Below are positions 1-16,968 of a DNA stretch of 64,000 bases, piece after piece. Below the pieces are notes generated by a model that did no database searches, was not told where the DNA came from, and saw only the letters and a list, made by a program, of their open reading frames with translations. This DNA comes from Opitutia bacterium. GTDB lineage: Bacteria; Verrucomicrobiota; Verrucomicrobiia; Opitutales; JABJCN01. Each line of letters opens with the position of its first letter. Position 1 is the stretch's first letter. The DNA lies in assembly GCA_018668635.1 (NCBI GenBank), contig JABJCN010000092.1, positions 9,032 through 73,031 of the forward strand, read 5' to 3'. The translations under genes were made by a program, and so were the position numbers.

Positions 1-3000
1 CCATTCAAGCTGGAAAGCGATATCATTAGTTTTGTTGCTCCAACCCGGGCAATTCTAGCCTCTGCACCCACGTTCCCTCCATTGCTTCCCGGTCAACGTA
101 TCTGGATTACAGGATCCACCAGTAATAATGGCATTTATACCGTCTCCCGCGATGTAGTGGCAACCGACCAGCAGATTATCATTGAAGAAGCCCTTTTGGA
201 TGAAACTGCCGGGAATCTTGTTACCATTGCCAGCGCTGGAGCCCAGCTTCCTGAAATGGATACGGATGCTGATGGATTAACTGATTTTTATGAGGAACAG
301 CTTGGGCTTGACCCTGGTCAGGATACTGATGGAGATGGTGTGCTCGATGACAGTGATGGTGACGGCAATCCCGATGGTTGGGACTCCGATGGTGACGGTC
401 TTCCTGATGGATGGGAGGTTCTCACCGGCCTTACCGTATTTGCCAATGATATCCATATGGCCAATAACAAGGTGTATTCAAGTTCCGCCATTGAACTCAC
501 TGGGTTGACTGATGTCTCATTTGACTCAGCGACCAGAAGTATTCGTAGTTCTCAAGGCTCACTTAGTGATACCAATCAACCGGCTTTCATCGCTGGCCAG
601 AAGGTTATCGTATCCGGTTCAGGTCTCAATAGCGGAACCTACACAATTGTTGCAGCAAACTCTATTCAGATAACGGTTGCCGAGGAGGTTCAAGATGAAA
701 AAGCCGGACGCGCGCTCTCTATTTCAAGCATTGGTGGCTCAAATCTATCTGTCTTTTCTGCAGGCACCACCTTGGAGGTCAAAGGCTTCACAAATATTGG
801 TAATTTCGGTATCGAGTCTTCAAGCGAAAACACCATTCAAGTCGTTGGAAATTTAGCCGATGAACCTACGGGTACTTTTGATCCCAATGATGAGTCCGCT
901 TATCGAGGCTGGATTACACTTTTTGCAAATGATACCGAGGGTGACTCTGATGGAGACCTTCTTTCCAATAAGGAGGAGTTTCTCGGTGCTGACGACAAGT
1001 CTTCTGGTTACAACGATTATCTGATCCCGGATCGCCTGTTCGATGGCGACTGGACACACCCCGTATTTAATGATACTGATGGAGACACCATTGATGATGG
1101 CTGGGAGATTCGATATGGTCTCGATCCAAACCAAAGCAATGGTCTTCTTGGAAGTGACATTGGTTTTCGCGACAATCGCGTCCGCTCCATTTCCAGCTTG
1201 GTCGTCAGTGGCCAGAATATTCGTTTTGATGGAGCTAGCAGTCGCATCCTATCATTGACTAATGAATTTATACTTCTTCGTCAGTGCCGTCAGGTTACAA
1301 TCATTGGCTCCGATAGCAACGACGGCTCATTTCCCATTATTGATATTGGAGTGGCTGGAGATTACATGGAAGTTGCGCCCGCTGCAAGCGGAGCGGTTAT
1401 TGTGGATGAAAAAGAGGGCCGACCTATCATGGTACATGGAGACCTTGAGATCCTGAGTAATGATATAAGCTTTAATGGGAATACCATAAGCTCTTCTCCA
1501 ACTACCGTTACAGGTAATGACATCTTTTTCACTGCAGCAGGTGAAATCCGTAACCTCGGGGGACAGTCTATTATGGGGGATGACATATCTTTCTCCGGGA
1601 CCACAATTCGTAGTCATAATGGGCACTTTTCTAGTGGAACGGATGACATATCCTTTGATGCGGCAACATCTGAAATTCGATCGCAGGTGGGCATCCTTAA
1701 TGGATATGCTGTGGGTTATCCCATCCTGGTGGCTGGTTCTGCGAATAACAATGGTTTGTTCATCGTGCAGTCTGTGCCTGTTCCGGGGTTCACCGTGGTT
1801 GTTAATGGCCCCCTCCAGGATGAAGGAGCCCAAAATGGCGGAAATAATCCTCAGCCCAAGGTCATTACCATTACCGCCATCGGGGGCACAGACCTTTCGA
1901 GTTTTATCTCCGGCTATCAAGTACAGGTTTTCGGATCTCTCTTTAATGATGGCATATATACCGTGACTGGAACACCCACTTTCCCCACGAATACGTTGGA
2001 CGTTGGCCAGCTACTTTTCACTGAGAGCAATGGAGCGTTTGTTGACATTTCTTATGCCGATACTTCCAGCTTTTCGAACTTCCGTGCCGGTCAGTCGATT
2101 ACTGTTACTGGTTCCGTTACCAATAATGGCACCTATACGATAGGCAACGCCTTACCCTCGGCGAACCTGATACAACTTGCTGCCACTGGCCCTGCCATTG
2201 TTGCCGAACCAGCCAATCCATTTACTGCAGTCACCCTGACTGCGCAAGGCGTCACAGACTTTTCCCGCTTTTCCCGGGGGGCACAAATTCAAGTTAATGG
2301 CACTTCCTTAAACGATGGCATTTACAATATTTCAAACGATATCGCACCGACTGCCAGCCAGATCCAAGTTGTTGAGCCTCTAACGCTTGAGGCTTCCGGT
2401 CCTGATCTTGAAATCTTTCAGCTTGGGCCTTCTTCCCGTCTGGATGCCTTTAATGATAATGAAAATGTTCTTATCAATGGCTCCTTAGGCAATGATGGCA
2501 CATTTATCATTGATACTAATGGTGTGAGCCCATCCACACTATTTGCTTTACCACCAAAATTATTTGCCTCGGAAGCAGCAGGTTCTCAAATTACAATATC
2601 CAAGGATCTCGATAGTGATGGTCTCCCTGACGTTGTTGAGTATCATTATAATTCCAACCCCAATCTTCGGGATACCGATGCTGATGGTGACACGGACATG
2701 GATGAAACTGGTGGATTCTTTGGTGGCAGTGATCCAACCGACCCTGATTCCGTCCTGCGATCCATTAATGGCTTGGTCAGATATAGTGGCATCGAGACGG
2801 GCAACATCTACATCCAGGTCGATGAGGCGAACCGCCCTTTTGAAGAAAACGACACCGGTGATACCATTCCCTCGGATCTTTATTTCACCAACAAAGACCG
2901 CACAATTCATTCTTCTACCGGAAAATTACCTTACCTTACCGTTGGACGACAAATCCTGATTTCTGGTACAAATGATGGGGATGGTGATGGGGTGGGGGAC

Positions 3001-6000
3001 AACGATGGTGTCTTTACGATTTCCAAGATTATTGCCTCAAAATATGCCATTGAGGTTGACGAGGAGCTTGTTGATGAGGGGACAATTGATGAAGATGGAG
3101 ACGGGGTTCCCGATGGGGTCTCTGTCTCAGCCACCGTACTTGGATATGACCCCATCCTTGTACCGCTTTCGCTGGGAGAGAGGGCCTACTCCATCAACGG
3201 GCTTGCCTCCGATCACTTGATCACGATTACCGCTTTCCTGGATGCAAATGGTAATGGTGGTCTTGATGAGTTTGCCGATCCCAATGGCCAATACAATAGC
3301 GGCAATCCCGTTGAGGTCGGTAAATCCGGTCGCTTTAATCTAAACCTTGACTTGGAACAGACGAGTTTGGCCATCGACAGTGTCACCACGGAGGAGATTG
3401 ATGGGGGGTATTACCACACCGTAATCTGGAATAGTGTCCCGGCGAAGCAATATCGTGTCCTTTATTCAACCTCCACCCCTGCCGGGCCATATGGCACCTA
3501 TGTCCCGGCTGCGAATGGCCTCCCGGTTGTCATCACAGGTCGTGATGCCCCCGTGGTGAACCCCGGGGACGATCCGCCAAAGACATCCCTTGTGCATTTC
3601 ACGGTGGAATCCCCTGTCTGGTATCGTGTGGAAATGGTTAATGCCTTTGGGGAGGGTGTTCCTGAGACTGATACAGATGGCGACGGCCTCACAGACTATC
3701 ACGAGGGGCAACTGAAACTCGACCCCGAAAACCCTGACGTTGATGAGGATGGCATGCCGGATGGCTGGGAGGTCTTGACCGGGCTCACAGCTTACGGCAA
3801 CGACCTGACCTTGGATGGAGACACCGGCAAGATTCTTTCCATTGCAGGTCTCATCACGGAATCAACCACTATTGGTTTCGATTTGGCCTCCAGGAAAATT
3901 AGTTTCAACAATGGCATGCCGGCTTTTATCGTTGGCCAGCAAATCACTGTAACAGGCTCCAAGGTTAATGATGGTACTTACACAATTTCAGAAGTCGCTA
4001 CAGATTCCACCTTCATTGTCGTGAAGGAAAGTCTAAACACGGAAACTGCTGGTGCTACAGTCACTGTTGCAAGCTTTGGAGGGACTGACCTCTCTGTATT
4101 TCAGGATGGAGCCATTTTGGTGATCAAGGGAACCACTGCGCAATTGTACGACGGAGTTTATAAGGTGATTGGTGCATCAATGACCCATGAGGCACAATTA
4201 TCAACAGTCGCCGGAGGCTTACCTTCCTTCCAGAACGGAAATGGTCATCCTGCTGAGCCCGGTATCTGGCTGACCCTTTACGCAACAGATTCCGATGCCA
4301 ATCCGGATGGTGATGGATGGGAAGATGTGGACGCATCAGGGAATCCAATTTGGCATCAGTATACAAATATTGAAGAATACCTTGGCGCGGACCAGACTCT
4401 CTCTATTTTCCGTAAGGAGCTTCTCCCAACCCGTATTTTCGACGGTGACTGGACGCACCCCAATAGTGTCGACACAGATATGGATGACATTGATGATGGG
4501 TGGGAGCGTCGATACGGATTGGACCCCAGTTCCCTCAACGGGACATTCGGTTCAGACCTCTCCTTTAAAGGCTCGCAGGTACGTTCAGTTGAAAGCATCT
4601 CTATTTCGGGTGAGAACATCAGTTTTGACGCGGCCACGCGCCGCATAAATTCTCTTTCATCATCCTTTCTTGCCTTCTCCAACTCGCAGTGGATCACGAT
4701 TACGGGCTCCGGGTTCAATGATGGGGTTTATGAGATTGAGTCAGTGTCCCAGTTTGGTGAGTTCATCACAGTTACTCCAGCCCATACACTTATAGAAGAA
4801 GTAAAGGGGGCAGATATATACATTCGCGCTGATCGGGAAAAAACAGGAACTGATATCAGCTTTAATGGTAATACAATTCGTGCTTCACGGACAACCGCCA
4901 GCGGTAGCGACATCCATTTTGATGATACCGGCTTTATCCGAAGTTTGGCTAACCAGAATGTTCAAGGCACTGACTTGGTCTTCGCACTAAACGAAGTCAA
5001 ATCTCACTTTGGACTAACGACTGGGTTCATTGTGAATGATATCAGTTTTGATGCAGCTTCACAGCAGATCAGTTCTCTAGCTGGTATTTTTCCGGATTTC
5101 GTTGTTGGGCAGCAGATTTTTGTCAATGGCTCCAATAGCAATGATGGTTTTTATACCCTTGCAGGTATTCCTGTTCAGGGCTCGATCTTACAGGTCAACG
5201 AGGCGCTAATTGACGAGGCTCGTCAAAATGTTGCCGGAGGGGGAGGGCCTGCTCCGCCTAAGATTATAGCAGTTGCCAGTGTAGGCGGCACGGATCTTTC
5301 TGGATTTCCCGGCGGGTTCCAAGTTCAGATTATGGGTTCTACTTTCAATGATGGTAATTTTACCCTGATTGCCCCTTCTTCCCAAAACCTATTACAGTTC
5401 GCTACTGCCATGCTCAATGAGCCTGCAGGAGCCAATACTGGGATTTCAGTATTAAACAGCACCAACCTGTCCGGGTTTGAGCTTGGTCAGCAGATTATTA
5501 TTACCGGCTCGACCCTGAATGATGGCACCTATCAAGTTTCCAATGCTGTGGCGCCAACTGCAGGTGCCATAGCGATTCAATTTGATCCACTGAACCCCTT
5601 GCAACTGCAAAATGAACCACCGTTGGTTACCCGTGCGCCCACAGTTGCCGCTGCAACTAATACCAATCTCTCCATGTTCACAAGGGGTGGCACGCTTGTG
5701 GTATCAGGTACGGCTTTCAATGATGGCACCTATCACATAAATCCCTTTATTGACCCAACTGCTGACACCATACAGGTCCAGGAAACCTTCATCAATGAGC
5801 CAATGGGCCCATCCACAACCATTTTGCAGACTGGTGCCACTGACCTATCCGGGTTTTTAGATAATACCACCATACTTGTTTCAGGTTCTTTTCTCAATAA
5901 TGGAGTCTACACAATTGCCAAGGATGGGGTTTCGCAGCATGCACTCACCTTTGCACCTTCCGGAATCTTTGCGGGATTTCTCCGTGAACCGGCTGCAGCA

Positions 6001-9000
6001 GACATTTCCATATCCCGGGACTCCGACAACGATGGTCTGCCCGACGTACTCGAATTCAACTACAAGACAAACCCATCCGAGCCTGACTCAGATGGTGATG
6101 GCGGCACCGATATTGCCGAGGTAAGTGGTCATTTTGGAGGCAGTGACCCCACTGATTCCACTTCTGTATTAAGTTCCATTGTTGGCACGATCATCTACGA
6201 AACCAATGAGAACGGCATCTTTTACGTCAGCCTCACGCCTGTGGCCGAGGGAATCAATGATCTCATGTTCAATAGTGCTGACCGCACCATTTCCTCTGCT
6301 TCAGGCCGCCTGCCATCTCTTATGGCCGGGGACATTCTTGAGGTTACAGGGACGGCATCCAATAATGGTCCTTTCACCGTTCTGGAAGTTGTGGCTCCTC
6401 ACACAACATTAAAGGTGATCGAGTCAATCTTGGATGAGTCTCCAGCTGATACCACAGTTATGGGACCACCCCTGCTTGTCTCCCTCCCGCCAAACCAGCG
6501 TAGTTTTGCCATCACAAATCTGCCTTCCGATGTCCATGTTCTTCTCGAGGCGTTCCTTGACTCAAACGGAAACGCTGAGCGCGATGATTTTATCGACCCA
6601 TCCGTTACCTACAATGGGGGCAAACCTCTCTTGGTTGGTCCTGGTGGTCGCTATAACATCGTCTTGGACCTTTCCCTTACTCCCCTGCGGATTCACCCAG
6701 ATGAAGTCGATGTAAAGGGGGTGGTCACAAAGGAAGATGAAATTACCGGCGGGTACCACCACACCATAACTTGGAAAAGTGTGCCGGGTAAGATTTATCA
6801 GGTCCGTTATTCGACAGCAACTCCGGCAGGTCCCTTTTCTCATTATGTGACTGCTCGGACAGGTTTGGCTGAGCAAGTCATCGGTAAGGCTGGAGGCGAA
6901 ACCACAAGCCTCATCCATTTTTCCACCCACCGCGATGTGTTTTACCGCATTGAACAACTGAATGCAGATGGTACTTTAACTCAAGAAGCGGACTCTGATG
7001 GTGATGGCCTGACAGATTACTACGAAGAAGCCCTTTTACTGGATCCTTTCACGCAGGATGTTGACCTTGATGGAATGCCAGATGGTTGGGAAGTTCTGAC
7101 TAAAATAACTACTCATGCAAGAGATATTCGGTTCAATGGCAGTACAATTACGTCTGTTTACAGCCTAACCTCGGCAAACAAGTCCGACATCTCTTTTGCA
7201 GGTAATATTATTTCAGCAACCTCCACCGAATTCCCCGAATTTCTCGCCGGTCATCAACTATTAATCACTGGTTCAGGCAAGAACGACGGTACCTATATTC
7301 TTGAGTCTGTTTCTGACGACCGGAAGACCCTGACCTTGTCGGGCACACTTGAGCAGGAAGTTGCCGGGGCTACGGTTACTATTTCCAGTGTCGGTGGAAC
7401 CAACCTTTCCATTTACCCGGCGGGAATTATTCTGAACGTCAAGGGCTCCACCAATACGCTCAATGATGGAATCTTTGAGGTCAAGGTCTCATCTGCAAAT
7501 CAATTAAATATGGTCAACGCCACTAATGGTACAGATCACGTTTTCATTTTAGAAGATCAAGATCCTGAGGCGCCCCACTATATTACCCTTTTTGCTTCTG
7601 ATGCTGACATTGACGCAGATATCGATGGATTATCCAACCTTGAGGAGTATCTTGGTGCGGACATCGAGGGGTCAACCTTCGATCCAGGGTTGCTTGCGGC
7701 CCGTGTCTTTGATGGTGATTACACCAACGCCACCGAGTTGGATACTGATGCAGACACGATGGATGATGGCTGGGAACGCAAGTATGGACTAAACCCGAAC
7801 GCGCTCAATGGTGTCTCGGGCACAGACCTCGGCTTTCGCGGACTCCAGATAAAGTCTATCAGCAGTATTCCAGTTTCTGGTCGTGACTTTACCTTTAACA
7901 GCGCGACAAATCGCATCACTGCTCTTTCAACCTCTCTCAGTAGCCTTCAACACGCACGCCAGTTAACTATTTTGGGCTCTGGCACAAATGATGGAACCTA
8001 TACGGTACTCTCTGTTGACACTGCAGGTGCCTTTATTGATATTCACCCCTCAACCCCAATTGCCATTAACCAGAAGGAGGGTAACTATGTGACCATACTT
8101 GGTGACAGGGAAATTCTTGGTAATGATATCTCATTGGATAGTTTTTCTATTCGGTCCACTCCCACTCAAGTTACAGGGAAGGATATTCATTTTGATTCTG
8201 CTGGGTTTATACGGTCCCTACTCGGTGTATTTGTTGAGGGACAGGATATCGGTTTTGTCGGCAACCAGATCAGTTCTCACTTTGGCCTGACCACAGGTGC
8301 GGTTGATGATGATATTTCTTTTGACTCTGCCACCAGCGAGATTCGCTCGGCTGGAGGTAACCTGCCTAATTTTGTCAACGGGTTTCAGATTCAGGTAGCC
8401 GGTTCCAACTTCAATAACGGCACCTTCACGGTTGTATCAACGATTACCTCTGGCTTTACTATTCAGGTTGCTGAGGCTCTTTTTGATGAGCCAGCCACTA
8501 ATAACCTTCTTCCCGGAGCAGCCAAAACCGTTACGATTGACTCCATTGGTGGCACTGATTTTTCATCAATTCCAAGCGGGTTTGAAATTTTTATATCAGG
8601 AAGTGGCGTTAATGATGGCGTCCAGACCGCTGCCATTTCCACTAGTAATATCCTTACGGTACTCAGTGGATTTATTTCCGAGGCAGCCGGTGCAAATGTC
8701 AGAATTGAGATTTCTCAACCTACAGATTTTAGTAATTTCCGAATTGGGCAGGAGATAGCAATTTCAGACAGTCGGCGTAATGATGGTGATTACATAATCG
8801 GTTCAGTTTCGCCAAATATGCTCAAAATTCAGTTTAATCCCACAATTCCTTCGCCTCTTTTCAATGACCCGGCAAATGTCTTGACTGAAGCTTCAGTCAC
8901 CGCCGTTGTCTTTAGTGACCTTTCCACATTCCAGAAAGGAGAATTCTTACAACTCAACGGTTCCACTGATAATAGTGGAGTTCTCCGCGTAAGCCCATTT

Positions 9001-12000
9001 TTTAACCCTACTCCAGACGAATTACAAGTACTTGATCTATTGGTCTCGGAGCCCATTGGATCGGATCTTGAATTCTTTCAACTTGGGCATACTGATTTAT
9101 CTGGTTTTAATGATGGTGACATCGTTTTGGTAGCCGGATCAATTGCCAATAATGGAATTTACACCCTTGCTCAAAATGGCGTTACAGGTCATGGGCTGAC
9201 TTTTAAAATGGCACCACCTTTTGCTGGGTTCGTCACCGAGTCTGCCGGTTCACTCGTTTCCATTTCCAAGGATCTCGACAATGATGGTTTATCCGATGTG
9301 TTGGAATATGTTTTCAAGAGTAACCCCACAATTGCTGATACCGATAATGACGGAGATTCTGACCTTGCTGAAACCAATGCCCGTTTTTATGGCAGCGACC
9401 CACAAAATAATGCCGTTCTCCTCACTTCTTTGAATGGAACAATTGAACACGCCCTACCTTATGAAGGCGCCGATCGCGGCACTGTTTATGTTGTAGTACA
9501 AGAACAGACCAGTGTTCATCAAGTTGGCGACCTTCAGTTTTCTGCCCAAGATAATTCTATTACCTCCACGGAGAGTAAATTACCATTTCTCGTCGCTGGT
9601 CGTAAGATCACGATTGCGGGTTCCTCCGCCACTGCAATTGGCACTGATATAGAATTTATTGGCAATACCATTAAGTCCTCAAACACCTTGATCCCCTCAT
9701 CCCTCTTACCTGGGCGTCAGGTTCTTATTTCTGGTTCAGGTGATAATGACGGCATTTATACAGTTGGTGCCGGAGGTGTTTCCTTGGATGGTAAAACTCT
9801 TACATTAACTGAGAGTTTAACCAATGAGGATAAGGGGTCTGAAGTATCCGTGGCCACTATTTATACAGTCGCGTCAGTTATCACCCCGGGAACAAAAATA
9901 ATTGTTAGCGACAACTTAGCGGATGAATTGCCATCAGATTGTTCCTTTAACATTTTGCCTGCTGCTCCGGAGATTGTTACTCTTCCCGTTGGTGTCTTGA
10001 GTTATTCTGTTGATGGATTGCCTAGTGGGTCAACTGTTTCAATACATGCTTATCTAGATGCAGACAAAGATGGTGAATATGATGCATTTGTCGATCCGTA
10101 TGGTGAATACAGTGCCCCGATTACCCTAGGCAAGTCTCCGCGTTACAACCTCAACATTACCCTTCGACAGAGCGATCTTACTCTGGCCAATGTCTCGCCA
10201 TTGACTTCCGCAACTAATGGGTTTGCGAATGCAATTACATGGAATTCGATCCCTGGAAAGATTTATCGTATCCTTTATTCAGATCATTCACCTGCTGGCC
10301 CTTATGATAAATATGTCGAGTCCCTGACCGGATTCCCTCAGGAAATTATCGGTCGCTTTCCTGATCCAATTAGCGGAATAAGCCAAACCTACATTGTTCA
10401 TATTTCTGAGCATAAGGACACATGGTATCGCCTCGAGATGATATCTGAGGATCGCCGCACCGTTACTTCTGAAGTTGATTCAGATAGTGATGGCCTTACC
10501 GATTACCACGAAAATAATATGGGTCTTGACCCTCAAGTCTTTGATTCTGATGGCGATTCTTTACCTGATGGTTGGGAGACATATACCGGACTGACCACTC
10601 ATGGTTCAGATATTTCGTTCACCGCACCAGGTACCATTCGGTCCATTGCCGGGTTACAGGTTACTGGAACTGACTTAAAGTTCATTGCTAACACTGGTGT
10701 TATTCAAGCCACGGCCAACTCTGTGGACTTCTCTGACTTTATTGCAGGGCAGAAAATTTCAATAACTGGATCTCTTCGTAATGACGGCACCTATTCGATT
10801 TTAGAAGAGCCGACGACCTCGACTATTACTGTTCAGGAACAAATCTATGACGAGGATGGCCCTCTCAGTGGTGTCTTAGTTGCCAGTGTTGGAGGAACTA
10901 ATTTGTCCGTCTTCCCAGCTGGCGCGGTGCTAACCATCATTAACTCGGCCCGAAACGATGGCACGTACAAAGTGTCCAGCGAGAATACTGTTTCCTCACA
11001 TACGCTTGTTCTCGAGAGCGATACCCTTGTAGCTGAAACTCATGATGAGAGTTCCGGAAGCATTACGATTTATGCCAGTGATAAGGATGCTGATCCAGAT
11101 GGAGACGGGTTAACAAATCTACAGGAATTTCTGGGTCCCGATGGTGAGGTGCCTTCATACGATTACGCCCTCGTTACGACCACTTTATTCAGTGGAGACT
11201 GGTCGCACCCTGTGAAGTTTGATACTGATGGAGATGGTATCGATGATGGCTGGGAAGTTGATTATGGCCTAAATCCCAATAAAATTGATCAATTGAGCGG
11301 AAAAGACATTAGCCTCCGTGGAGATCGAGTTTTTTCCATGGCAAACATTGAGGTATCTGGAGTTGATATCTCCTTGGACCACGATATGAACCGCCTCCTT
11401 TCTACATTTCCTCATTTTAAGGACTTTAGCAAGGGCCAGCTTATTCGTATTGAAGGAACCAACAGTAATGATGGCAGTTATCATATTAAATCTGCTAGGC
11501 CAAACGAAATTTACCTAGAAGAACCATTGACAGATACTGAACCTGCCGGGTCTAAGATTGTCACCATTATAGCAGATATCTCCATTACCAGTTCGAATCT
11601 CGCCATTGATGAGAACTCTATCTACTCCGCCACCACATCAGCAGAGGGTGGAGATATTACGTTTAGCCGAGATCGTGTGCAGTCTCTACACGACTATGCC
11701 GTCACCGGTACCGATCTTATTTTTCGAGATAAGCAGATCACCTCCACTTCCGGGCTTAAATATCTGGTTCATGAGGCGGCCCCGAGACTTTTTGCCCTGC
11801 GCGGGGCAGAAATGACCACCGAGGACGGTCTTACACTTAATTTTGTGGAAAACCAAAGGCTCATCATGCGTAATCTCACGGTACCTTTCGTTGATTATTT
11901 TTCTGTCCGCAGAGTGCAGTTTGGTGGGGAAAAAATAACCTTTAACACGGCTCCGCCCTTCAACCAATCCCCACAAAACATTGAGTGGACGGAGATTTTC

Positions 12001-15000
12001 ACTGAGCCCGGCACCGGCACTGATCTCTCCCTGCTTGTGCCAGGTTTGCAGATTCAGGTCAGCGGGTCACAGTTCAATGACGGTGTCTACACAATTTCCG
12101 ACATTGAGTACGGTCGGGACCGCTGGGTGGCGGAAGACCCATTTGGCCAGCAACGTGCACCGGAAGGCACCCTTGATTATTCATTGGATAATAATAATAC
12201 GACCACAGTCCTGACTGTCGATACCCCAACATTATTTAACGATGAGGCAACTGGCCGAGAGATTACCATTACTGTACTCAATGGTACAGACCTTGCTGAG
12301 TTTCGGACCAAGCAGGAATTCGAGGTTTCTGAATCCTATTCCAATAACGGCGTCTACACGGTCTCGGATGCAGTCATCCCCACGTCCAATCAAATGGTTG
12401 TTCATGATCACATCTTTAAGGAGGAACCACGCTTGCTGGCCACGGATCTCCTCGTTGACGATATTTCATTTCAGCCTGTCGGAGAAGTTGCAGGGAATCC
12501 CTTGGTCCCCCAAGATGGCACTCTTATTGCCAGGCACCCTGTTTTTGATGTTGTCACCAGTCCTATTCGCTTCAGTCAGTCAGACTTGGAGGCAGGTGGG
12601 CGTGGTCGTCGCCTTAATGTAATCGAATGGTCGACAAACCTCCTTGCAATCAGTGATCCTGACCCAGCTACTGACTTCGACGATATTTACTTTCAGAATG
12701 GTGATGTTATCAGTGGTACCTTTGAAGTTTTTCCAGCCGATCCAATCTTGATGATTCCGGCTGTAACAGAACCCCGGATTTATGTGGTAGTTGGTGTTGC
12801 GCCTATAACCGACCCACTTAATTCTCCAGACTTCACAACTTTTGTTAATAATACCAATGCTATCTTGCCGGGTGCCCTTGTGCAAATTCTCAACTCTACA
12901 GGTCCGGTTACCACCGTGTTTGAGCCGAATGCTGGGCGGTACGAATTGGGCGAAGTCGTGTATGATGATACTGACGGTAATTACTACATGGCTTTTGCTG
13001 GACCAACCACTGCTGCCGCTGGCTGTACTGAAATATCTACCGAATGGATACCTCTTGGCCCAACACCACCTCACATGGGTGTTGCAGATGAATTTTCATC
13101 ACTTGTAAGCTATGATCCTGGTGCCCTTGTTCAGTTTGAGAATCACATTTATGTCGCGTTGGAGGAGTTAAGCCTCAACCAGGGCACGCCGACCGAGAAT
13201 ACAACCTCGTGGATCGAGCCCAGCTTATACATGACCAGCAGCCTGATCCTTTCCCACACAGGCGCCATTCCAAAGTTGGTTGCAGGAACCAAGATCAACG
13301 TATATGTTCAAGGGGATGGCGCCAATGTTGACCACGGTGGCTCGTGGGTGGATTGGCCACTATGGGCGCTTGGCGACCCAGACCCCAATGCTAAAAGTTT
13401 CACGGTCAAGAATTTTATCAGTCCATTCATGATTGAGGTGGAGGAATCGGTAATCGAGCACGATAGATTCCATGACGATGTATTTACGTGGTTCTTTGAT
13501 CCTTTAAGTGGCGATCTAATACCGTTTTTAGCGGATCCGCAACCGCCCCGTAATATCAGGCTCTTTGTAAACTCTTATTCCACCGGGCAAAACCCGCAAG
13601 CCAAGCTTGACCTGGTTCGCATTGATCTCTCGGCCTTCCAGCCTGGTCAAAAGCTCACCATCATTGATTCCTCCAAAAACAATGGTGTGTACACAATCTC
13701 TGATGAGGCAGTTGCAGTTGCAGATCGTGTTTATCTACAGGAACCGCTTTACATTGAGAACGATGGGTCAAATGCCACCATATTCCAGTCCGGCGCGACA
13801 GATCTCTCCGGGTTCTCCTTTGGAAGTAAGTTTATCTTGGGAGGTAGTGATCAAAATGATGGCAAATTTACGGTTAACTCCATCAAACCCAACAGTTCTA
13901 TTGTTGATGTATCACGTGTTTTTACCCAGGAAGAAGTGGATGCTGGGATCACCACTGCGTTGGCAACCGAGGCCACAGGGAGAAACATCACCATGGGCAT
14001 TGATACAGATGATGACAGTTTGTCCAACAACCAGGAATATACTGGTGCAGATGGTATTTCCCCCAACAATCCTGGAGATAGTTCAGATGCAACCGCTCCC
14101 ACTTTGTCTGATTTCGATAGGGATGGATACGCTGACGATGTTGAGCGGGGTGGCTATTTTGGCGGCAGTAAAGCTTGGGACATTAATTCGATTCCATCCT
14201 CAATTTCGGGAAAAATCAATTATACAGGCACGCTTGATGGCGAGGTAATTCTAAGGATACTGGAGGGCAATGATCCCAATCCTGCTGCACCGAATGATAT
14301 CAGTTTTACTTCAGAGGGAAGCATCATTCGCTCCTCAAGTGGTAGCCTCCCATTGCTTTTACCTGGTGAAAAACTACATATACAAGGTACCATACTAACC
14401 TACATTCCATTTAATTCAAATGGCATTAATACCTCCTACACCGTTAAGGAGGTTGTCACGCAAGGCAGTGAGATTACCGTTGAGGAAGCATTGATTGACA
14501 CCCCTCTTCCAACAGAAGGACTTGTTTTCCTTCAGCTTTGGGGTACGCCTGAGTTGTTAGAGCTTAACCTGGGTGCATCCGGCCCCTATACGGTGTCTGG
14601 TCTTCCATCACACAAGAGTTACATTGTTGATGCATTTCTGGATGTTGGAATAAAGGTTGCCAGCAGCAATCTCACATTCGACCCAGACACGGGGACAATT
14701 ACAGCTAACACCGACCTTTTCACGGAATTTGCTATCGGCCAGACCATCCGGGTTACTGGAAGTGAGGCGTTACCGATCAATGATGGTTCTTATACTCTTA
14801 CCGCGGTCACTGGAACCACTCTGACTGTTGCAGAAACAATTACAACAAGGGAGGAGCCCGGATCTTATATTATCATCCAGGGACTGGGTAACGGGGTTTA
14901 CGATGATCAGGCGGAACCTTATGGCAGCTATATTTTCCCTGCATCAGGTGGTGCCATCCAGTTGGTTTCCGGCATTATACCGATAAGCCACCTCAATAAT

Positions 15001-16968
15001 ATCAATATCGAGCTGACTCTTCCGGAACCCAGTATTTTCGATATTATACCGGATGTGGCCAATGGCAAAAATACTGTCAAGTGGAACAGCATTGCCGGTA
15101 AGACTTATCGCATCCTCTATTCTAATATTAATGCTGTTGGTCCTTACAATTATGTTAAGACTCTGGCTGCTCAAATTGATATAGACAGTCAGCGCGCCAC
15201 CCTTGATGGCCAACCTTTTGAGTGGGATCTTAATAATAACGGCATTATTGATCCTGGTGAGGATATCAACGAGAACGGCGTTCTTGATACCCCGGGTCCT
15301 GGTGATACGATTGATCTTGCTGTAACGACCGTTGAGGGTCAGAGCATCGCTTTGGTGGAGCATTTTATTGAAGGGGATGTCTGGTATCGTGTCGAGATGG
15401 AGAATGGCACCTATGATATACCCGAACAGGATACAGATGCTGACGGGCTCTCCGATTTCTACGAGAATCTGGACACTGCCAAGGGGGGCTTTGGCACGGT
15501 GTTTGATGTCTATGACAGTGACGGTGATGGCATGAGCGATGGTTGGGAAATCTTTGTTGCCCTTGATCCTCTTGATGAATCAGATGCTTCGGTTGACGCG
15601 GATGGTGACGGTCTCAGTCACCTTGAGGAATATATGGGAGGCGACAAGGTGCCTGCTGCCTACGATTACACTCGAATCCTAACGGACGTTTTCTCGGGTG
15701 ACTGGACTTACAGTTGGAACAACAACTTCTGGGCGCCTGCGAACAATCCCGAAGTCAATCATCGTACCCTTCTACCTGCTGATACACCCGATACTGACTT
15801 TGACGGGTTTCCCGATGGTGCTGCTGACCCACGGGATTCTGATAGCGATCCCAATAATCCAGGAATGCGTGACGGGTGGGAGGTCATGTACAGCCTTAAT
15901 CCCAATTTCAACGATCGTGAAAGTGATCCCGATAACGATGGTTGGGACCATGATGGCAATGGACTGGTTGAGAGCACTGAACTCTATTCTAACATTGAGG
16001 AATACTTGGGTAAGGATGGAGGTGCGCCGGTGTTGGACACTGCCAACGGTCTACTTCTTTCCAATGGTGCTGTTTTCACCGGGGACCATACAAATCCACA
16101 GGATCCTGATAGCGATTTGGACAGTTACCTTGACGGACGCGAAGCCGATATCATGGAGGGTGTCCTCTTTGGGGGGAGTGATCCCAATGACCCAACATCC
16201 ACCCTCATGCATTTTACCGGCAGTCTCACAAGCCCCAACGGCCCGGACAACCTTCGTCTCGCTATCTCAGATGATACGACGATCCCGGCTGGTGATGTCA
16301 TTTCCGGTGTCGGTGCAATCTACAAGATCGCAGATGTACCCACCGGCAATTACGTGGTATATGCATTTGAAGACAAAAATGCCAACGGAAGCTGGGATAA
16401 CGACACCACGGAGCCAGCCCGGTCCCTCGGTGGTCACGGTAACCCGACCAAGGCCAGTACAGTTTCATTCGCAGCCGGTAGCCCCGTGGTAATTCTTGAT
16501 TTTGAGCTGGATGCAGCATTTGTGGACGACTCTGTTGCCCCAACCTTTGCCGAATGGGCGGTCACCGAAGGCCTTACAGGGAAGGGGAGTGCGGCCGAAC
16601 TTGATGCAGATGGCGATGGTATCCCCAACTTTGTGGAGTTTGCTGCCAACACAGGGCCCCTTGACCCCGATAGCAAACCGGAGGCAACCTTCCACTTCGA
16701 GAACACCCTCGGCGGATTGCTTGAGGCAGAGGAACCCGGCTTTCGCATGATGACCGTTTCCCACCCGTGGAACGGCGTCCTTGCCGGTCAGGTAGCCTAT
16801 GAAATCCAGGTCTCCGAGGACCTCAACCTGGGCTGGAGAACCCTGACACCTGGCGATGGTTTACTCCAGAGTCTTTCCCTCCACGGTGACCGTATCGAGG
16901 CCAAAATCCGCTGTGCCGATGTCAATAGAACCACCTTCACCCGTTTTGTATTTAAGGAGGCCAAATAA
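1..16968 (+). CDS. Giant Ca-binding (thrombospondin type-3-like) repeat protein, probably cell-surface or extracellular; 5' end lies outside the window (at least 5655 aa visible)
   Basis: Frame 1 has no stop from nt 1 to the TAA at 16966-16968. Nt 1-81 translate to PFKLESDIISFVAPTRAILASAPTFPP, which continues the internal repeat pattern, so the ORF-track TTG at 82 is not the true start. The protein has many DxDxDGxxDxxE motifs (DTDGDGLTDYHE, DSDGDGLPDGWE). I count about 36-38 copies by eye of a GQxIxIxGSxxNDGxYTV module. There are four Fn3-like YR[VI]LYS..PAGPY...WYRxE modules. Confidence 0.9.
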   Translation, partial: PFKLESDIISFVAPTRAILASAPTFPPLLPGQRIWITGSTSNNGIYTVSRDVVATDQQIIIEEALLDETAGNLVTIASAGAQLPEMDTDADGLTDFYEEQLGLDPGQDTDGDGVLDDSDGDGNPDGWDSDGDGLPDGWEVLTGLTVFANDIHMANNKVYSSSAIELTGLTDVSFDSATRSIRSSQGSLSDTNQPAFIAGQKVIVSGSGLNSGTYTIVAANSIQITVAEEVQDEKAGRALSISSIGGSNLSVFSAGTTLEVKGFTNIGNFGIESSSENTIQVVGNLADEPTGTFDPNDESAYRGWITLFANDTEGDSDGDLLSNKEEFLGADDKSSGYNDYLIPDRLFDGDWTHPVFNDTDGDTIDDGWEIRYGLDPNQSNGLLGSDIGFRDNRVRSISSLVVSGQNIRFDGASSRILSLTNEFILLRQCRQVTIIGSDSNDGSFPIIDIGVAGDYMEVAPAASGAVIVDEKEGRPIMVHGDLEILSNDISFNGNTISSSPTTVTGNDIFFTAAGEIRNLGGQSIMGDDISFSGTTIRSHNGHFSSGTDDISFDAATSEIRSQVGILNGYAVGYPILVAGSANNNGLFIVQSVPVPGFTVVVNGPLQDEGAQNGGNNPQPKVITITAIGGTDLSSFISGYQVQVFGSLFNDGIYTVTGTPTFPTNTLDVGQLLFTESNGAFVDISYADTSSFSNFRAGQSITVTGSVTNNGTYTIGNALPSANLIQLAATGPAIVAEPANPFTAVTLTAQGVTDFSRFSRGAQIQVNGTSLNDGIYNISNDIAPTASQIQVVEPLTLEASGPDLEIFQLGPSSRLDAFNDNENVLINGSLGNDGTFIIDTNGVSPSTLFALPPKLFASEAAGSQITISKDLDSDGLPDVVEYHYNSNPNLRDTDADGDTDMDETGGFFGGSDPTDPDSVLRSINGLVRYSGIETGNIYIQVDEANRPFEENDTGDTIPSDLYFTNKDRTIHSSTGKLPYLTVGRQILISGTNDGDGDGVGDNDGVFTISKIIASKYAIEVDEELVDEGTIDEDGDGVPDGVSVSATVLGYDPILVPLSLGERAYSINGLASDHLITITAFLDANGNGGLDEFADPNGQYNSGNPVEVGKSGRFNLNLDLEQTSLAIDSVTTEEIDGGYYHTVIWNSVPAKQYRVLYSTSTPAGPYGTYVPAANGLPVVITGRDAPVVNPGDDPPKTSLVHFTVESPVWYRVEMVNAFGEGVPETDTDGDGLTDYHEGQLKLDPENPDVDEDGMPDGWEVLTGLTAYGNDLTLDGDTGKILSIAGLITESTTIGFDLASRKISFNNGMPAFIVGQQITVTGSKVNDGTYTISEVATDSTFIVVKESLNTETAGATVTVASFGGTDLSVFQDGAILVIKGTTAQLYDGVYKVIGASMTHEAQLSTVAGGLPSFQNGNGHPAEPGIWLTLYATDSDANPDGDGWEDVDASGNPIWHQYTNIEEYLGADQTLSIFRKELLPTRIFDGDWTHPNSVDTDMDDIDDGWERRYGLDPSSLNGTFGSDLSFKGSQVRSVESISISGENISFDAATRRINSLSSSFLAFSNSQWITITGSGFNDGVYEIESVSQFGEFITVTPAHTLIEEVKGADIYIRADREKTGTDISFNGNTIRASRTTASGSDIHFDDTGFIRSLANQNVQGTDLVFALNEVKSHFGLTTGFIVNDISFDAASQQISSLAGIFPDFVVGQQIFVNGSNSNDGFYTLAGIPVQGSILQVNEALIDEARQNVAGGGGPAPPKIIAVASVGGTDLSGFPGGFQVQIMGSTFNDGNFTLIAPSSQNLLQFATAMLNEPAGANTGISVLNSTNLSGFELGQQIIITGSTLNDGTYQVSNAVAPTAGAIAIQFDPLNPLQLQNEPPLVTRAPTVAAATNTNLSMFTRGGTLVVSGTAFNDGTYHINPFIDPTADTIQVQETFINEPMGPSTTILQTGATDLSGFLDNTTILVSGSFLNNGVYTIAKDGVSQHALTFAPSGIFAGFLREPAAADISISRDSDNDGLPDVLEFNYKTNPSEPDSDGDGGTDIAEVSGHFGGSDPTDSTSVLSSIVGTIIYETNENGIFYVSLTPVAEGINDLMFNSADRTISSASGRLPSLMAGDILEVTGTASNNGPFTVLEVVAPHTTLKVIESILDESPADTTVMGPPLLVSLPPNQRSFAITNLPSDVHVLLEAFLDSNGNAERDDFIDPSVTYNGGKPLLVGPGGRYNIVLDLSLTPLRIHPDEVDVKGVVTKEDEITGGYHHTITWKSVPGKIYQVRYSTATPAGPFSHYVTARTGLAEQVIGKAGGETTSLIHFSTHRDVFYRIEQLNADGTLTQEADSDGDGLTDYYEEALLLDPFTQDVDLDGMPDGWEVLTKITTHARDIRFNGSTITSVYSLTSANKSDISFAGNIISATSTEFPEFLAGHQLLITGSGKNDGTYILESVSDDRKTLTLSGTLEQEVAGATVTISSVGGTNLSIYPAGIILNVKGSTNTLNDGIFEVKVSSANQLNMVNATNGTDHVFILEDQDPEAPHYITLFASDADIDADIDGLSNLEEYLGADIEGSTFDPGLLAARVFDGDYTNATELDTDADTMDDGWERKYGLNPNALNGVSGTDLGFRGLQIKSISSIPVSGRDFTFNSATNRITALSTSLSSLQHARQLTILGSGTNDGTYTVLSVDTAGAFIDIHPSTPIAINQKEGNYVTILGDREILGNDISLDSFSIRSTPTQVTGKDIHFDSAGFIRSLLGVFVEGQDIGFVGNQISSHFGLTTGAVDDDISFDSATSEIRSAGGNLPNFVNGFQIQVAGSNFNNGTFTVVSTITSGFTIQVAEALFDEPATNNLLPGAAKTVTIDSIGGTDFSSIPSGFEIFISGSGVNDGVQTAAISTSNILTVLSGFISEAAGANVRIEISQPTDFSNFRIGQEIAISDSRRNDGDYIIGSVSPNMLKIQFNPTIPSPLFNDPANVLTEASVTAVVFSDLSTFQKGEFLQLNGSTDNSGVLRVSPFFNPTPDELQVLDLLVSEPIGSDLEFFQLGHTDLSGFNDGDIVLVAGSIANNGIYTLAQNGVTGHGLTFKMAPPFAGFVTESAGSLVSISKDLDNDGLSDVLEYVFKSNPTIADTDNDGDSDLAETNARFYGSDPQNNAVLLTSLNGTIEHALPYEGADRGTVYVVVQEQTSVHQVGDLQFSAQDNSITSTESKLPFLVAGRKITIAGSSATAIGTDIEFIGNTIKSSNTLIPSSLLPGRQVLISGSGDNDGIYTVGAGGVSLDGKTLTLTESLTNEDKGSEVSVATIYTVASVITPGTKIIVSDNLADELPSDCSFNILPAAPEIVTLPVGVLSYSVDGLPSGSTVSIHAYLDADKDGEYDAFVDPYGEYSAPITLGKSPRYNLNITLRQSDLTLANVSPLTSATNGFANAITWNSIPGKIYRILYSDHSPAGPYDKYVESLTGFPQEIIGRFPDPISGISQTYIVHISEHKDTWYRLEMISEDRRTVTSEVDSDSDGLTDYHENNMGLDPQVFDSDGDSLPDGWETYTGLTTHGSDISFTAPGTIRSIAGLQVTGTDLKFIANTGVIQATANSVDFSDFIAGQKISITGSLRNDGTYSILEEPTTSTITVQEQIYDEDGPLSGVLVASVGGTNLSVFPAGAVLTIINSARNDGTYKVSSENTVSSHTLVLESDTLVAETHDESSGSITIYASDKDADPDGDGLTNLQEFLGPDGEVPSYDYALVTTTLFSGDWSHPVKFDTDGDGIDDGWEVDYGLNPNKIDQLSGKDISLRGDRVFSMANIEVSGVDISLDHDMNRLLSTFPHFKDFSKGQLIRIEGTNSNDGSYHIKSARPNEIYLEEPLTDTEPAGSKIVTIIADISITSSNLAIDENSIYSATTSAEGGDITFSRDRVQSLHDYAVTGTDLIFRDKQITSTSGLKYLVHEAAPRLFALRGAEMTTEDGLTLNFVENQRLIMRNLTVPFVDYFSVRRVQFGGEKITFNTAPPFNQSPQNIEWTEIFTEPGTGTDLSLLVPGLQIQVSGSQFNDGVYTISDIEYGRDRWVAEDPFGQQRAPEGTLDYSLDNNNTTTVLTVDTPTLFNDEATGREITITVLNGTDLAEFRTKQEFEVSESYSNNGVYTVSDAVIPTSNQMVVHDHIFKEEPRLLATDLLVDDISFQPVGEVAGNPLVPQDGTLIARHPVFDVVTSPIRFSQSDLEAGGRGRRLNVIEWSTNLLAISDPDPATDFDDIYFQNGDVISGTFEVFPADPILMIPAVTEPRIYVVVGVAPITDPLNSPDFTTFVNNTNAILPGALVQILNSTGPVTTVFEPNAGRYELGEVVYDDTDGNYYMAFAGPTTAAAGCTEISTEWIPLGPTPPHMGVADEFSSLVSYDPGALVQFENHIYVALEELSLNQGTPTENTTSWIEPSLYMTSSLILSHTGAIPKLVAGTKINVYVQGDGANVDHGGSWVDWPLWALGDPDPNAKSFTVKNFISPFMIEVEESVIEHDRFHDDVFTWFFDPLSGDLIPFLADPQPPRNIRLFVNSYSTGQNPQAKLDLVRIDLSAFQPGQKLTIIDSSKNNGVYTISDEAVAVADRVYLQEPLYIENDGSNATIFQSGATDLSGFSFGSKFILGGSDQNDGKFTVNSIKPNSSIVDVSRVFTQEEVDAGITTALATEATGRNITMGIDTDDDSLSNNQEYTGADGISPNNPGDSSDATAPTLSDFDRDGYADDVERGGYFGGSKAWDINSIPSSISGKINYTGTLDGEVILRILEGNDPNPAAPNDISFTSEGSIIRSSSGSLPLLLPGEKLHIQGTILTYIPFNSNGINTSYTVKEVVTQGSEITVEEALIDTPLPTEGLVFLQLWGTPELLELNLGASGPYTVSGLPSHKSYIVDAFLDVGIKVASSNLTFDPDTGTITANTDLFTEFAIGQTIRVTGSEALPINDGSYTLTAVTGTTLTVAETITTREEPGSYIIIQGLGNGVYDDQAEPYGSYIFPASGGAIQLVSGIIPISHLNNINIELTLPEPSIFDIIPDVANGKNTVKWNSIAGKTYRILYSNINAVGPYNYVKTLAAQIDIDSQRATLDGQPFEWDLNNNGIIDPGEDINENGVLDTPGPGDTIDLAVTTVEGQSIALVEHFIEGDVWYRVEMENGTYDIPEQDTDADGLSDFYENLDTAKGGFGTVFDVYDSDGDGMSDGWEIFVALDPLDESDASVDADGDGLSHLEEYMGGDKVPAAYDYTRILTDVFSGDWTYSWNNNFWAPANNPEVNHRTLLPADTPDTDFDGFPDGAADPRDSDSDPNNPGMRDGWEVMYSLNPNFNDRESDPDNDGWDHDGNGLVESTELYSNIEEYLGKDGGAPVLDTANGLLLSNGAVFTGDHTNPQDPDSDLDSYLDGREADIMEGVLFGGSDPNDPTSTLMHFTGSLTSPNGPDNLRLAISDDTTIPAGDVISGVGAIYKIADVPTGNYVVYAFEDKNANGSWDNDTTEPARSLGGHGNPTKASTVSFAAGSPVVILDFELDAAFVDDSVAPTFAEWAVTEGLTGKGSAAELDADGDGIPNFVEFAANTGPLDPDSKPEATFHFENTLGGLLEAEEPGFRMMTVSHPWNGVLAGQVAYEIQVSEDLNLGWRTLTPGDGLLQSLSLHGDRIEAKIRCADVNRTTFTRFVFKEAK
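253..3663 (+). repeat. Super-repeat 1 of the giant protein (about 1137 aa)
   Basis: The unit starts at EMDTDADGLTDFYEEQLGLDP and ends after the Fn3-like module YRVLYSTSTPAGPYGTYV...WYRVEMVN. The same domain order recurs in the next three units. Confidence 0.75.
3664..6984 (+). repeat. Super-repeat 2 (about 1107 aa)
   Basis: The unit starts at ETDTDGDGLTDYHEGQLKLDP and ends after YQVRYSTATPAGPFSHYV...FYRIEQLN. It is collinear with unit 1 at protein level but heavily diverged at DNA level. Confidence 0.75.
6985..10470 (+). repeat. Super-repeat 3 (about 1162 aa)
   Basis: The unit starts at EADSDGDGLTDYYEEALLLDP and ends after YRILYSDHSPAGPYDKYV...WYRLEMIS. Confidence 0.75.
10471..15423 (+). 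repeat. Super-repeat 4, expanded to about 1651 aa by a non-repetitive insert
   Basis: The unit starts at EVDSDSDGLTDYHENNMGLDP and ends after YRILYSNINAVGPYNYV...WYRVEMENG. It carries a unique region of about 390 aa (roughly nt 12430-13600) that units 1-3 lack. Confidence 0.7.

Follow-up and report, generated by a model that had tools for sequence, protein, structure and literature searches.

The NDG module in the giant protein

The window analysed here is a stretch of 64,000 nucleotides (nt) of contig JABJCN010000092.1 from an Opitutia bacterium, and it opens inside a giant gene. On the forward strand, frame 1 is open from nt 1 to a stop codon at 16966-16968, giving 5,655 codons, and the N-terminus of the product lies upstream of the window. 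The protein carries many copies of a small module that we call the NDG module after its G...GS..NDG.Y core. An earlier note on this DNA had counted about 36-38 copies by eye and had proposed an undescribed, beta-rich repeat domain forming the stalk of the protein; as a whole, that interpretation is partly supported by the present analysis.

A loose regular expression of the core motif given in that note retrieved 26 copies, and a hidden Markov model (HMM) was built from these and iterated once on the same protein. The HMM gave 39 rows on the window protein, 37 of them with E<1e-5 and 35 with E<1e-10. One module is split by a nested copy and appears twice, as rows 28 and 30, so that the 39 rows correspond to 38 modules, which agrees with the earlier count. 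The module numbers in Table 1 follow the rows and therefore run to 39. The modules are distributed from nt 64 to nt 14889, so that the first copy lies ahead of position 520, where the repeats had been said to begin. The core is about 58 amino acids (aa) long and has the consensus GTDLSSFSAGQQITVSGSTSNDGVYTISSVSVSGNTITVAEALIDEPAGSNVTISSAG, with which both motif halves described earlier agree. All window copies have the N and G of the NDG turn, and almost all have the E of 'L..E.AG'. As controls, 50 shuffles of the protein and its reversed sequence were scanned, and no HMM match was obtained at E<=0.01.

Tandem copies are spaced 55-69 aa apart. Spacings of 80 aa or less were found for 19 of the 38 pairs of successive HMM rows, and the other copies stand singly among other domains of super-repeats of about 1,100 aa. 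The repeat reported earlier is thus real, but its copies do not make up a single array. The unit length of 60-75 aa given at that time does not hold for the core, while it does for the longer cassette that includes the preceding 'DISFxxxxxIRS' segment. Modules account for 39% of the visible protein. The mean pairwise identity of the copies is 28% and no DNA-level repeat was detected by Tandem Repeats Finder; therefore, the duplications are old.

The super-repeats were delimited by self-BLAST. Three of them (aa 80-1181, 1217-2296 and 2302-3452) share 39-40% identity and are followed by more diverged copies; at the start of the window there is the tail of an earlier super-repeat. According to the translation and the motif map, each super-repeat has paired TSP3 motifs, a module pair and then a single module, four tandem units of about 21 aa, a five-module run, further TSP3 motifs, a transthyretin-like domain with an inserted module, and an Fn3-like domain. 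The motif map shows 20 TSP3-type motifs in the window part of the protein, and pairs of them punctuate each super-repeat. The Pfam family TSP3_bac (PF18884, with the motif DxDxDGxxDxxE) reached its cutoff of 25 with 61.3 bits in the N-terminal 2,651 aa and scored 17.7 and 21.9 bits in the two halves of the window protein. When the window protein was compared with NCBIfam, only the TSP3 parts were matched, as fragments of MtsD and CglD.

One module of the window is nested in another. A complete cassette, made of a leader segment and a module, sits in the NDG loop of the host module (rows 28-30 in Table 1). Unsplit paralogues of the host are found at aa 973-1031 and 2101-2156, and the paralogue in super-repeat 1 (module 10) has an enlarged, aspartate-rich NDG loop (TNDGDGDGVGDNDG) at the site of nesting. 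Weak Pfam matches to SpaA_2 and DUF2141 were recorded near module 10.

Other elements accompany the modules. A transthyretin/DUF2141-like domain ('AFLDxNGNxxxDxxxDP..Y') is seen at 6180-6900 of the window and in the paralogous regions, where it is apparently interrupted by an inserted cassette. Behind it follows an Fn3-like domain ('W.S.PGK.YRV.YS...GPY'), for which no Pfam model gave a match. The units of about 21 aa ('GxDIxFxxxxIRSxxxxxx') form arrays of four in each of the first three super-repeats, and the fourth unit of every array serves at the same time as leader of the module that follows.

Table 1. Features of the giant gene and of the gene that follows it, in nt of the window. E-values are from the module HMM.
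Feature	Position	Strand	Basis and remarks
3' part of giant gene, 5,655 codons	1-16968	+	Open frame; joined to L080 nt 2275-10227 = 8,306 aa
Module 1, tail of super-repeat starting upstream of window	64-240	+	E=3.8e-21; self-BLAST aa 12-233 vs aa 1935-2146
Modules 2-3, tandem pair	568-879	+	E=5e-19, 4.5e-12
Module 4	1267-1437	+	E=3.9e-11
Four tandem ~21-aa 'GxDIxFxxxxIRS' units, super-repeat 1	1453-1683 (approximate)	+	Translation, motif map
Modules 5-9, five-module run, super-repeat 1	1687-2604	+	E=6.7e-16 to 3.2e-22
Module 10, NDG loop enlarged (TNDGDGDGVGDNDG), within transthyretin-like domain	2917-3093	+	E=9.6e-14; context read from translation
Example of paired TSP3-type calcium-binding motifs (DTDGDGLTDYHE ... 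DVDEDGMPDGWE)	3670-3771	+	Motif map
Modules 11-12	3913-4194	+	E=6e-22, 4.9e-10
Module 13	4657-4830	+	E=1.7e-17
Four tandem ~21-aa 'DIxF...IRS' units, super-repeat 2	4840-5076 (approximate)	+	Translation, motif map
Modules 14-18, five-module run, super-repeat 2	5080-6018	+	E=6.6e-17 to 1.3e-22
Module 19 and leader segment, inserted in transthyretin-like domain	6301-6468	+	E=5.6e-16; flanks read from translation
Modules 20-21	7222-7584	+	E=5.7e-21, 4.1e-11
Module 22	7927-8103	+	E=4.8e-17
Four tandem ~21-aa 'DIxF...IRS' units, super-repeat 3	8113-8349 (approximate)	+	Translation, motif map
Modules 23-27, five-module run, super-repeat 3	8353-9270	+	E=5.4e-16 to 1.2e-21
Nested pair, rows 28-30	9571-9948	+	Host split 9571-9630 / 9856-9948; inner module 9691-9861 (HMM rows)
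Modules 31-32	10720-11082	+	E=1.1e-18, 9.1e-17
Module 33	11407-11577	+	E=8.1e-17
Modules 34-35; module 34 with ~30-aa insertion	12016-12447	+	E=5.2e-18, 4e-17
Modules 36-37, pair modelled with AlphaFold2	13618-13968	+	E=1.9e-19, 1e-16
Module 38, diverged	14338-14529	+	E=1e-9
Module 39, last copy	14710-14889	+	E=1.2e-14
Downstream open reading frame, 2,406 aa, three Big_7 domains	17010-24230	+	Pfam Big_7; starts 42 nt past the giant gene's stop
Diverged module in Big_7 protein, sole other window copy	21372-21500	+	E=6.8e-7, six-frame HMM scan of whole window

Comparison with family and structure libraries

Three alignments were used in the searches, namely of the module core (A1), of the unit found in flagellar relatives (A4) and of the cassette (A6), and the window protein was scanned both as two halves and as 30 single modules. 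In neither form did the module give a significant match in Pfam-A. NifZ (PF04319) scored 22.4 and 22.8 bits for the window halves, below its cutoff of 27 and with no stretch passing alone; 4 of the 30 single modules matched it, and its best E-value of 0.0061 was the best of any Pfam family. None of the Ig-like, FN3, PKD, cadherin and FG-GAP models of Pfam appeared at E<=1 on the window protein or at E<=10 on single modules, except Ig_TgrO1 (E=0.064, one module). The full-length protein of 8,306 aa, described below, contains 0 GG.G.D (GGxGxD) motifs and has no HemolysinCabind match, and there is no RTX or type I secretion system (T1SS) signal in it. The earlier remark that the module could not be matched to the Ig, cadherin, FG-GAP, RTX and PKD families is thus upheld, and the comparison with Pfam that the earlier note had suggested yielded only the sub-threshold NifZ scores and no confident match.

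NCBIfam has no family for the module. Profile searches of PDB with the three alignments gave no significant match under the criterion of E<=1e-3; the best sequence matches were ComEA (8dss, E=0.19) for A1, 2kyw (E=0.0012, two short stretches) for A4 and a designed WD40 protein, Tako8 (E=0.006, summed over repeats), for A6. The match to Tako8 was dismissed, since that protein is a designed repeat and none of the eight stretches that add up to the score is significant alone. ComEA was found with E-values of 0.19 and 0.023. A beta-grasp lead (the SLBB domain of ComEA and the ubiquitin-like Mdy2, E about 0.02-0.2) was dropped because the module is predicted to be strand at the place where SLBB, in the segment after the hairpin that is the matched part of ComEA, is helical. 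Literature searches for the motif strings of the module found nothing. Since there is no significant match in Pfam-A, NCBIfam or the PDB sequences, the domain is unassigned in the curated libraries.

On the other hand, PHROG 1236 ('head protein', head and packaging) was matched by the two window halves with E=1.8e-47 and 3.8e-37 and by 15 of the 30 single modules (best E=4.8e-7), which matched no other PHROG. PHROGs set no curated cutoff, and PHROG 1236 is an automatically clustered whole-protein family. The best stretches cover profile positions of about 43-112 out of 177; only the central part of the profile being covered, the match reflects a shared domain and not membership of the whole protein. 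Therefore, the description of the domain as undescribed is right with respect to curated families, but the domain is already contained in an automatic phage family.

Distribution among bacterial proteins

Of 1.84 billion cluster representatives scored with a profile of the 30 best window copies, 2,833 matched at E<=1e-3; 506 of these had E<=1e-10 and 65 had E<=1e-30. Giant proteins of up to 7,868 aa are among the matches. Of the best 150 clusters, 49 are longer than 2,000 aa and 15 longer than 5,000 aa. Also within the best 150, 38 are flagellin/FlgL-type proteins, which share the N- and C-terminal regions of one member (P0008) that match flagellin and FlgL models. These proteins have 3-10 modules in the middle, with a unit of about 85 aa, and hhalign aligned the window modules with the flagellar units at a probability of 98.9% (E=2e-17). 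P0099 (L081 6001-9225) is a flagellin/FlgL-family protein of 1,074 aa with eight modules, and its gene occupies the FlgL position between flgK and flaF on a 3.1-Mb contig, with a Maf-type flagellin-modification gene nearby. It would be either an unusually large hook-filament junction protein or a flagellin that bears the module as decoration.

Few members are named, and these are hypothetical proteins from metagenome-assembled genomes (MAGs) of Alpha- and Gammaproteobacteria and from one Peribacteraceae MAG. Whether the family is restricted to the lineage of the window had been raised earlier; it is not, as the 2,833 clusters include flagellin/FlgL-type proteins and the module is also present in many phage virion proteins.

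Occurrence in phage and the cassette as a unit

IMG/VR was scanned for the peptide NDGTYTV with confirmation by tblastn, and 63 viral loci (contigs) with the module were found. An HMM made from the window copies only matches open reading frames (ORFs) on these contigs with E-values down to 1e-17, mostly with one copy per protein. A tblastn search with the window modules and two relatives found nothing in 50,697 GenBank phages; the phage link is apparent only with profiles or in IMG/VR.

The phage hosts are of several kinds. In a tail tube protein, the 266-position Phage_tube_2 profile is stretched over residues 6-439, and two cassettes make up most of the surplus length. In an Lcl_C (DUF1566) protein, the 117-position profile is stretched over residues 85-289 (205 residues) with one cassette within. 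An SU10-type adaptor and a head-tail adaptor (phrog_442) carry one cassette each, and minor tail proteins (phrog_290) and proteins of receptor-binding type are also among the hosts. No Pfam model covers the cassette in the phage host proteins.

In front of the module, phage, flagellar and window proteins all have the same leader, 'xIxF..(5-6 residues)..TIx', and therefore the evolutionary unit is a cassette of about 80 aa made of leader and module. The leader, about 20 aa long, is read as a beta-hairpin. It is absent within tandem runs, and elsewhere in the window it is repeated four times. Few gaps are needed to align window with phage cassettes, in which F15, G42, N46, G48 and E71 are invariant. 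The cassette is a discrete unit: single copies sit in loops of unrelated beta-rich proteins, one copy is nested in another, and further copies form tandem runs. It is always found in proteins that end up on an exposed surface, be it the phage virion, the flagellar filament or junction, or the secreted giant protein.

Predicted fold

For two modules (window aa 4532-4662), AlphaFold2 with 71 diverse module pairs gave a predicted local distance difference test (pLDDT) score of 74.7 and a predicted template modelling (pTM) score of 0.47, and the pLDDT was 87-91 over most of the first module. The model contains short strands at GQxIxV, at xYTV, in the middle segment and at VTI. Apart from strands, only a single three-residue helical turn was predicted, which bears out the beta-rich nature claimed for the module.

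The top Foldseek matches in PDB were Spt5 KOW2-3, uL24, NusG, the Tudor domains of SGF29 and SETDB1, TraI 2B and the pyruvate kinase barrel, all of them SH3-like small barrels and none significant. In BFVD, uncharacterised Caudovirales proteins (about 100-220 aa) and baseplate proteins match one module; the single-domain matches have probabilities of 0.9-1.0, a root-mean-square deviation of 1.4-2.8 Å over about 50 residues, 20-26% identity and E-values of 0.03-0.7. Weak Pfam matches to small barrels were also obtained, namely NifZ, SH3_2, PUA_4, OB_YrrC, TraI_2B, Myosin_N and CusF.

Full-length product and neighbouring genes

The upstream part of the gene was found with an exact 40-mer from the window start, which led to the JGI contig Ga0209660_1000707 (L080 in Table 1). 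This contig is 99.8% identical to the window over a 4,505-nt overlap and reaches 10.2 kb further upstream, and joining the two gives a protein of 8,306 aa without stop codons. To this protein L080 contributes the ATG, a signal anchor, two Peptidase_S8 domains, a P_proprotein domain and 3 more modules. The N-terminus is MTRNKFRQTNLRILFQCLLFLGLLSLLV, a stretch that is read, by inspection only, as a signal peptide or signal anchor. The two Peptidase_S8 domains score 316 bits in all; the first is kexin-like, with the P domain, and lies near the start, and the second lies at aa 1691-1949. With the signal anchor, the two Peptidase_S8 domains and the P domain, the product is taken as a protease-bearing giant surface protein rather than a plain adhesin. 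No terminal hydrophobic segment was seen on reading the C-terminal 220 aa. The last 120 aa or so (window 16600-16965, after the last TSP3 motif) matched no library family. In a stretch near the C-terminal region there is a weak match (E=0.0019) to the Amuc_1099 pilus-like family, which is probably only a TSP3-like motif.

The locus is also present in the NCBI MAG GCA_018673815.1 and in assemblies from ENA, Logan and JGI. In a diverged relative (L001, about 60-70% identity), 34 modules were counted on 21 kb of a long-read contig with frameshifts. The giant gene is therefore no assembly artefact. The full-length protein is not on record in the word-indexed homologue searches, which were nearly empty, with 3 matches for the five-module run, a single one for alignment A1 and 9 fragments for the first 500 aa. 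TARA Oceans fragments are the nearest homologues that carry a name, and they suggest that the source is marine. A scan of GTDB genomes with the super-repeat found 74 loci, all through the TSP3 repeats, and the module was in none of them at E<=1e-4, so that no close relative came out of the scan; the longest matches, in Kiritimatiellia and Verrucomicrobiota MAGs, were also made through TSP3 repeats and are a hint only.

A secretin gene (PF00263, L080 6-1502) lies on the same strand about 770 nt 5' of the giant gene. The secretin may serve as the export route of the giant protein, and this gene context suggests export across the outer membrane; no further secretion gene could be read there. On the other side, the ORF with three Big_7 domains (Table 1) probably encodes a partner surface protein of the same operon. 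Beyond it there are ordinary chromosomal genes, namely those for prolyl-tRNA synthetase (ProRS), an amidohydrolase, an ECF sigma factor, a fumarase, a TonB-dependent receptor and an RND pump. The window has one tRNA-Met gene, and its GC content is even, at about 0.42-0.51.

Discussion

Nature of the module

The explanation that we favour, with reasonable though far from full confidence, is that the NDG module is a distinct and uncurated family, an independently folding extracellular domain that decorates, or is inserted on, a surface fibre and is likely to be a small beta-barrel. The most likely fold is a five-stranded SH3/KOW-like barrel. In such a barrel, G...GS..NDG.Y would form the first hairpin with a tight Asn-Gly turn, in a loop tolerant of insertions, and 'L..DE.AG..VTI' would supply the closing strands. 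The first and last strands would lie side by side and bring the termini together; with its termini adjacent, the cassette could be spliced into surface loops of unrelated proteins or concatenated.

Several points weigh against this explanation. Modelling two to three tandem modules, as had been advised earlier, succeeded only for the pair described above, while three modules with a 23-sequence alignment gave a pLDDT of 55, which is too poor for use. No fold match is statistically significant, the best Foldseek E-values being 0.18 in PDB and 0.028 in BFVD, and some of the weak Pfam matches are to the beta-sandwich families fn3_6, CarboxypepD_reg and Big_6. Also, the two-module model is without the leader segment, and the barrel topology and the adjacent termini are inferred, not measured.

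The giant protein starts with the signal anchor, by which it may stay tethered if it is not released. Two subtilisin-like proteases, the first of them kexin-like, come next and are followed by at least five super-repeats of about 1,100 aa. No catalytic motif is present in the modules, which would play a structural role as robust surface beads that add bulk and reach. Together with about two dozen TSP3 calcium sites, such beads may form a long calcium-stiffened fibre with the two subtilases near its N-terminus. By analogy with Ig-like domains on phage, multivalent weak adhesion is probably an added function. The stalk role proposed earlier is in keeping with the large share of the visible protein that the modules occupy, but less so with their being interspersed with TSP3, transthyretin-like and Fn3-like domains. 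A decoration or insertion domain fits better than a uniform end-to-end stalk, because the modules often sit in loops of other domains.

A bolder proposal, which we find doubtful, is that the leader-plus-NDG cassette represents an unrecognised superfamily, perhaps with a novel variant of fold, and is transferred horizontally as a self-contained insertion unit among virion proteins of phage, axial proteins of the flagellum and giant surface proteins of bacteria. A specific calcium or glycan site may then be built from the invariant N, G, Y and E, and the module would be equivalent in function to the Ig-like decoration domains, with a ligand specificity of its own, instead of being an inert spacer. 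As far as the residues are concerned, a calcium or glycan site built from the invariant N, D and E is possible.

Alternative explanations

The alternative that survives best, although we judge it unlikely, is that the cassette of about 80 aa is an Ig-like or Fn3-like beta-sandwich, that is, a very divergent Big or FN3 decoration domain. The length of the cassette is suitable, and its contexts, phage tail tubes and giant adhesins, are reportedly those of Ig-like decoration domains. Single flagellar units weakly match fn3_6 (E=0.0065), CarboxypepD_reg, fn3_5 and Big_6, and 2kyw, the best PDB match of the flagellar-unit profile (E=0.0012), is an adhesin domain. However, no Big, FN3, PKD or cadherin model came near its cutoff on the window protein, the leaderless tandem spacing of 55-69 aa is too short for a sandwich, and the AlphaFold2 model matches small barrels instead.

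It is less probable still that the module is a divergent form of the head-tail joining protein gpFII of phage lambda (Phage_attach or tail_join_FII) recruited as a repeat. Phage_attach, with a cutoff of 26, scored 32-43 bits over the whole protein in five FlgL-type relatives, tail_join_FII scored 25.2 bits in one protein (P0023, cutoff 25), and 10 of the 51 single flagellar units match Phage_attach. But these Phage_attach scores are sums over repeats, with E=0.015 for the best single unit, and of the 99 profile positions only those from about 39 to 94, in the C-terminal half, are involved. The window protein has no Phage_attach match even at E<=1, and no chain named as a head-tail joining protein was returned by the PDB searches with A1, A4 and A6 at E<=10.

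A continuous beta-solenoid or beta-helix stalk, in which the repeats would be turns and not separate domains, is very improbable. The regular, strand-rich repeat with its runs of five copies, two BFVD matches named 'beta-helix protein', and the solenoid-like look of the tandem 21-aa 'DIxF..IRS' units speak for it. Nevertheless, the unit occurs singly in the tail tube, adaptor and Lcl_C proteins and nested in itself, which is impossible for a solenoid turn, and the combination of a pTM of 0.47 with high per-domain pLDDT fits freely oriented beads. Finally, compositional bias or chance in a protein rich in T, S, G, D and N, where many weak library matches are summed over repeats, has practically no chance of being the explanation: it is refuted by the shuffled and reversed controls, the window, phage and flagellar copies all keep N and G and also show conserved F, G and E, and single-copy phage matches reach E=1e-17.

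Comparison with known systems

PHROG 1236 is the only library family with significant sequence similarity to the module, but it is a whole-protein cluster without a curated description, structure or threshold, and in the best stretches only the middle third of its profile is matched. The Ig-like decoration domains (Big_2, FN3 and I-set) resemble the module as small beta domains that are inserted in virion proteins, where they are said to decorate phage, and that stand in tandem in giant surface proteins. The module differs in having no sequence match to them, a shorter core (58 aa) and a predicted barrel in place of a sandwich. The SH3-like barrels (KOW, Tudor, SH3, NifZ and TraI 2B) are similar in size and predicted strand pattern and supply all the top, though non-significant, matches, and by our reading the spacing 'F..G..V.V..G......G.Y.V..V' of the module resembles a KOW motif. 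Those barrels, however, are intracellular binders of nucleic acids or peptides, whereas the module is extracellular and repeated, and no significant match links the two. The resemblance to lambda gpFII (PF05354, Phage_attach) is weak and confined to the C-terminal half of the profile in the relatives of the module; it is partial, with single-unit E-values of 0.015 or worse, and undetected in the window protein.

Giant adhesins and 'periscope' proteins have tandem stalk domains such as Rib, SHIRT, G5-E and, in RTX adhesins, BIg. Like them, the module is present in many copies in a giant extracellular protein with calcium-binding repeats. In contrast to them, its copies are only about 28% identical and interspersed, with neither a uniform high-identity array nor an RTX/T1SS signal. 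For the flagellar relatives, the nearest comparison is the DE region, a duplicated region that replaces D2/D3 in the giant flagellins of Oceanospirillales (Thomson et al. 2018, PMC6248924). Like the DE region, the units here are inserted repeatedly and make the exposed middle of proteins of the flagellar filament family larger. By its description the DE region is a larger element, whereas here 3-10 copies of a unit of about 85 aa are found, at least one such protein being at an FlgL locus.

Significance

The NDG module is a new family among the small extracellular repeat and decoration domains, already captured within PHROG 1236. Since thousands of clusters contain the domain but neither Pfam nor NCBIfam detects it, much of the length of these proteins carries no annotation. 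Those affected include giant surface proteins of bacteria not yet in culture, flagellar proteins of unusual size, and tail and adaptor proteins of phage. A defined family would improve their annotation and flag the insertions that break models of phage structural proteins. It would also provide a second example, beside the Ig-like domains, of a small module common to phage virions and bacterial surface organelles, which is useful for the question of how phage and bacteria acquire surface-adhesive decorations. For the organism itself, the protein of 8,306 aa with two subtilase domains, encoded beside a secretin gene, is plausible as a particle- or prey-contact organelle of a marine bacterium.

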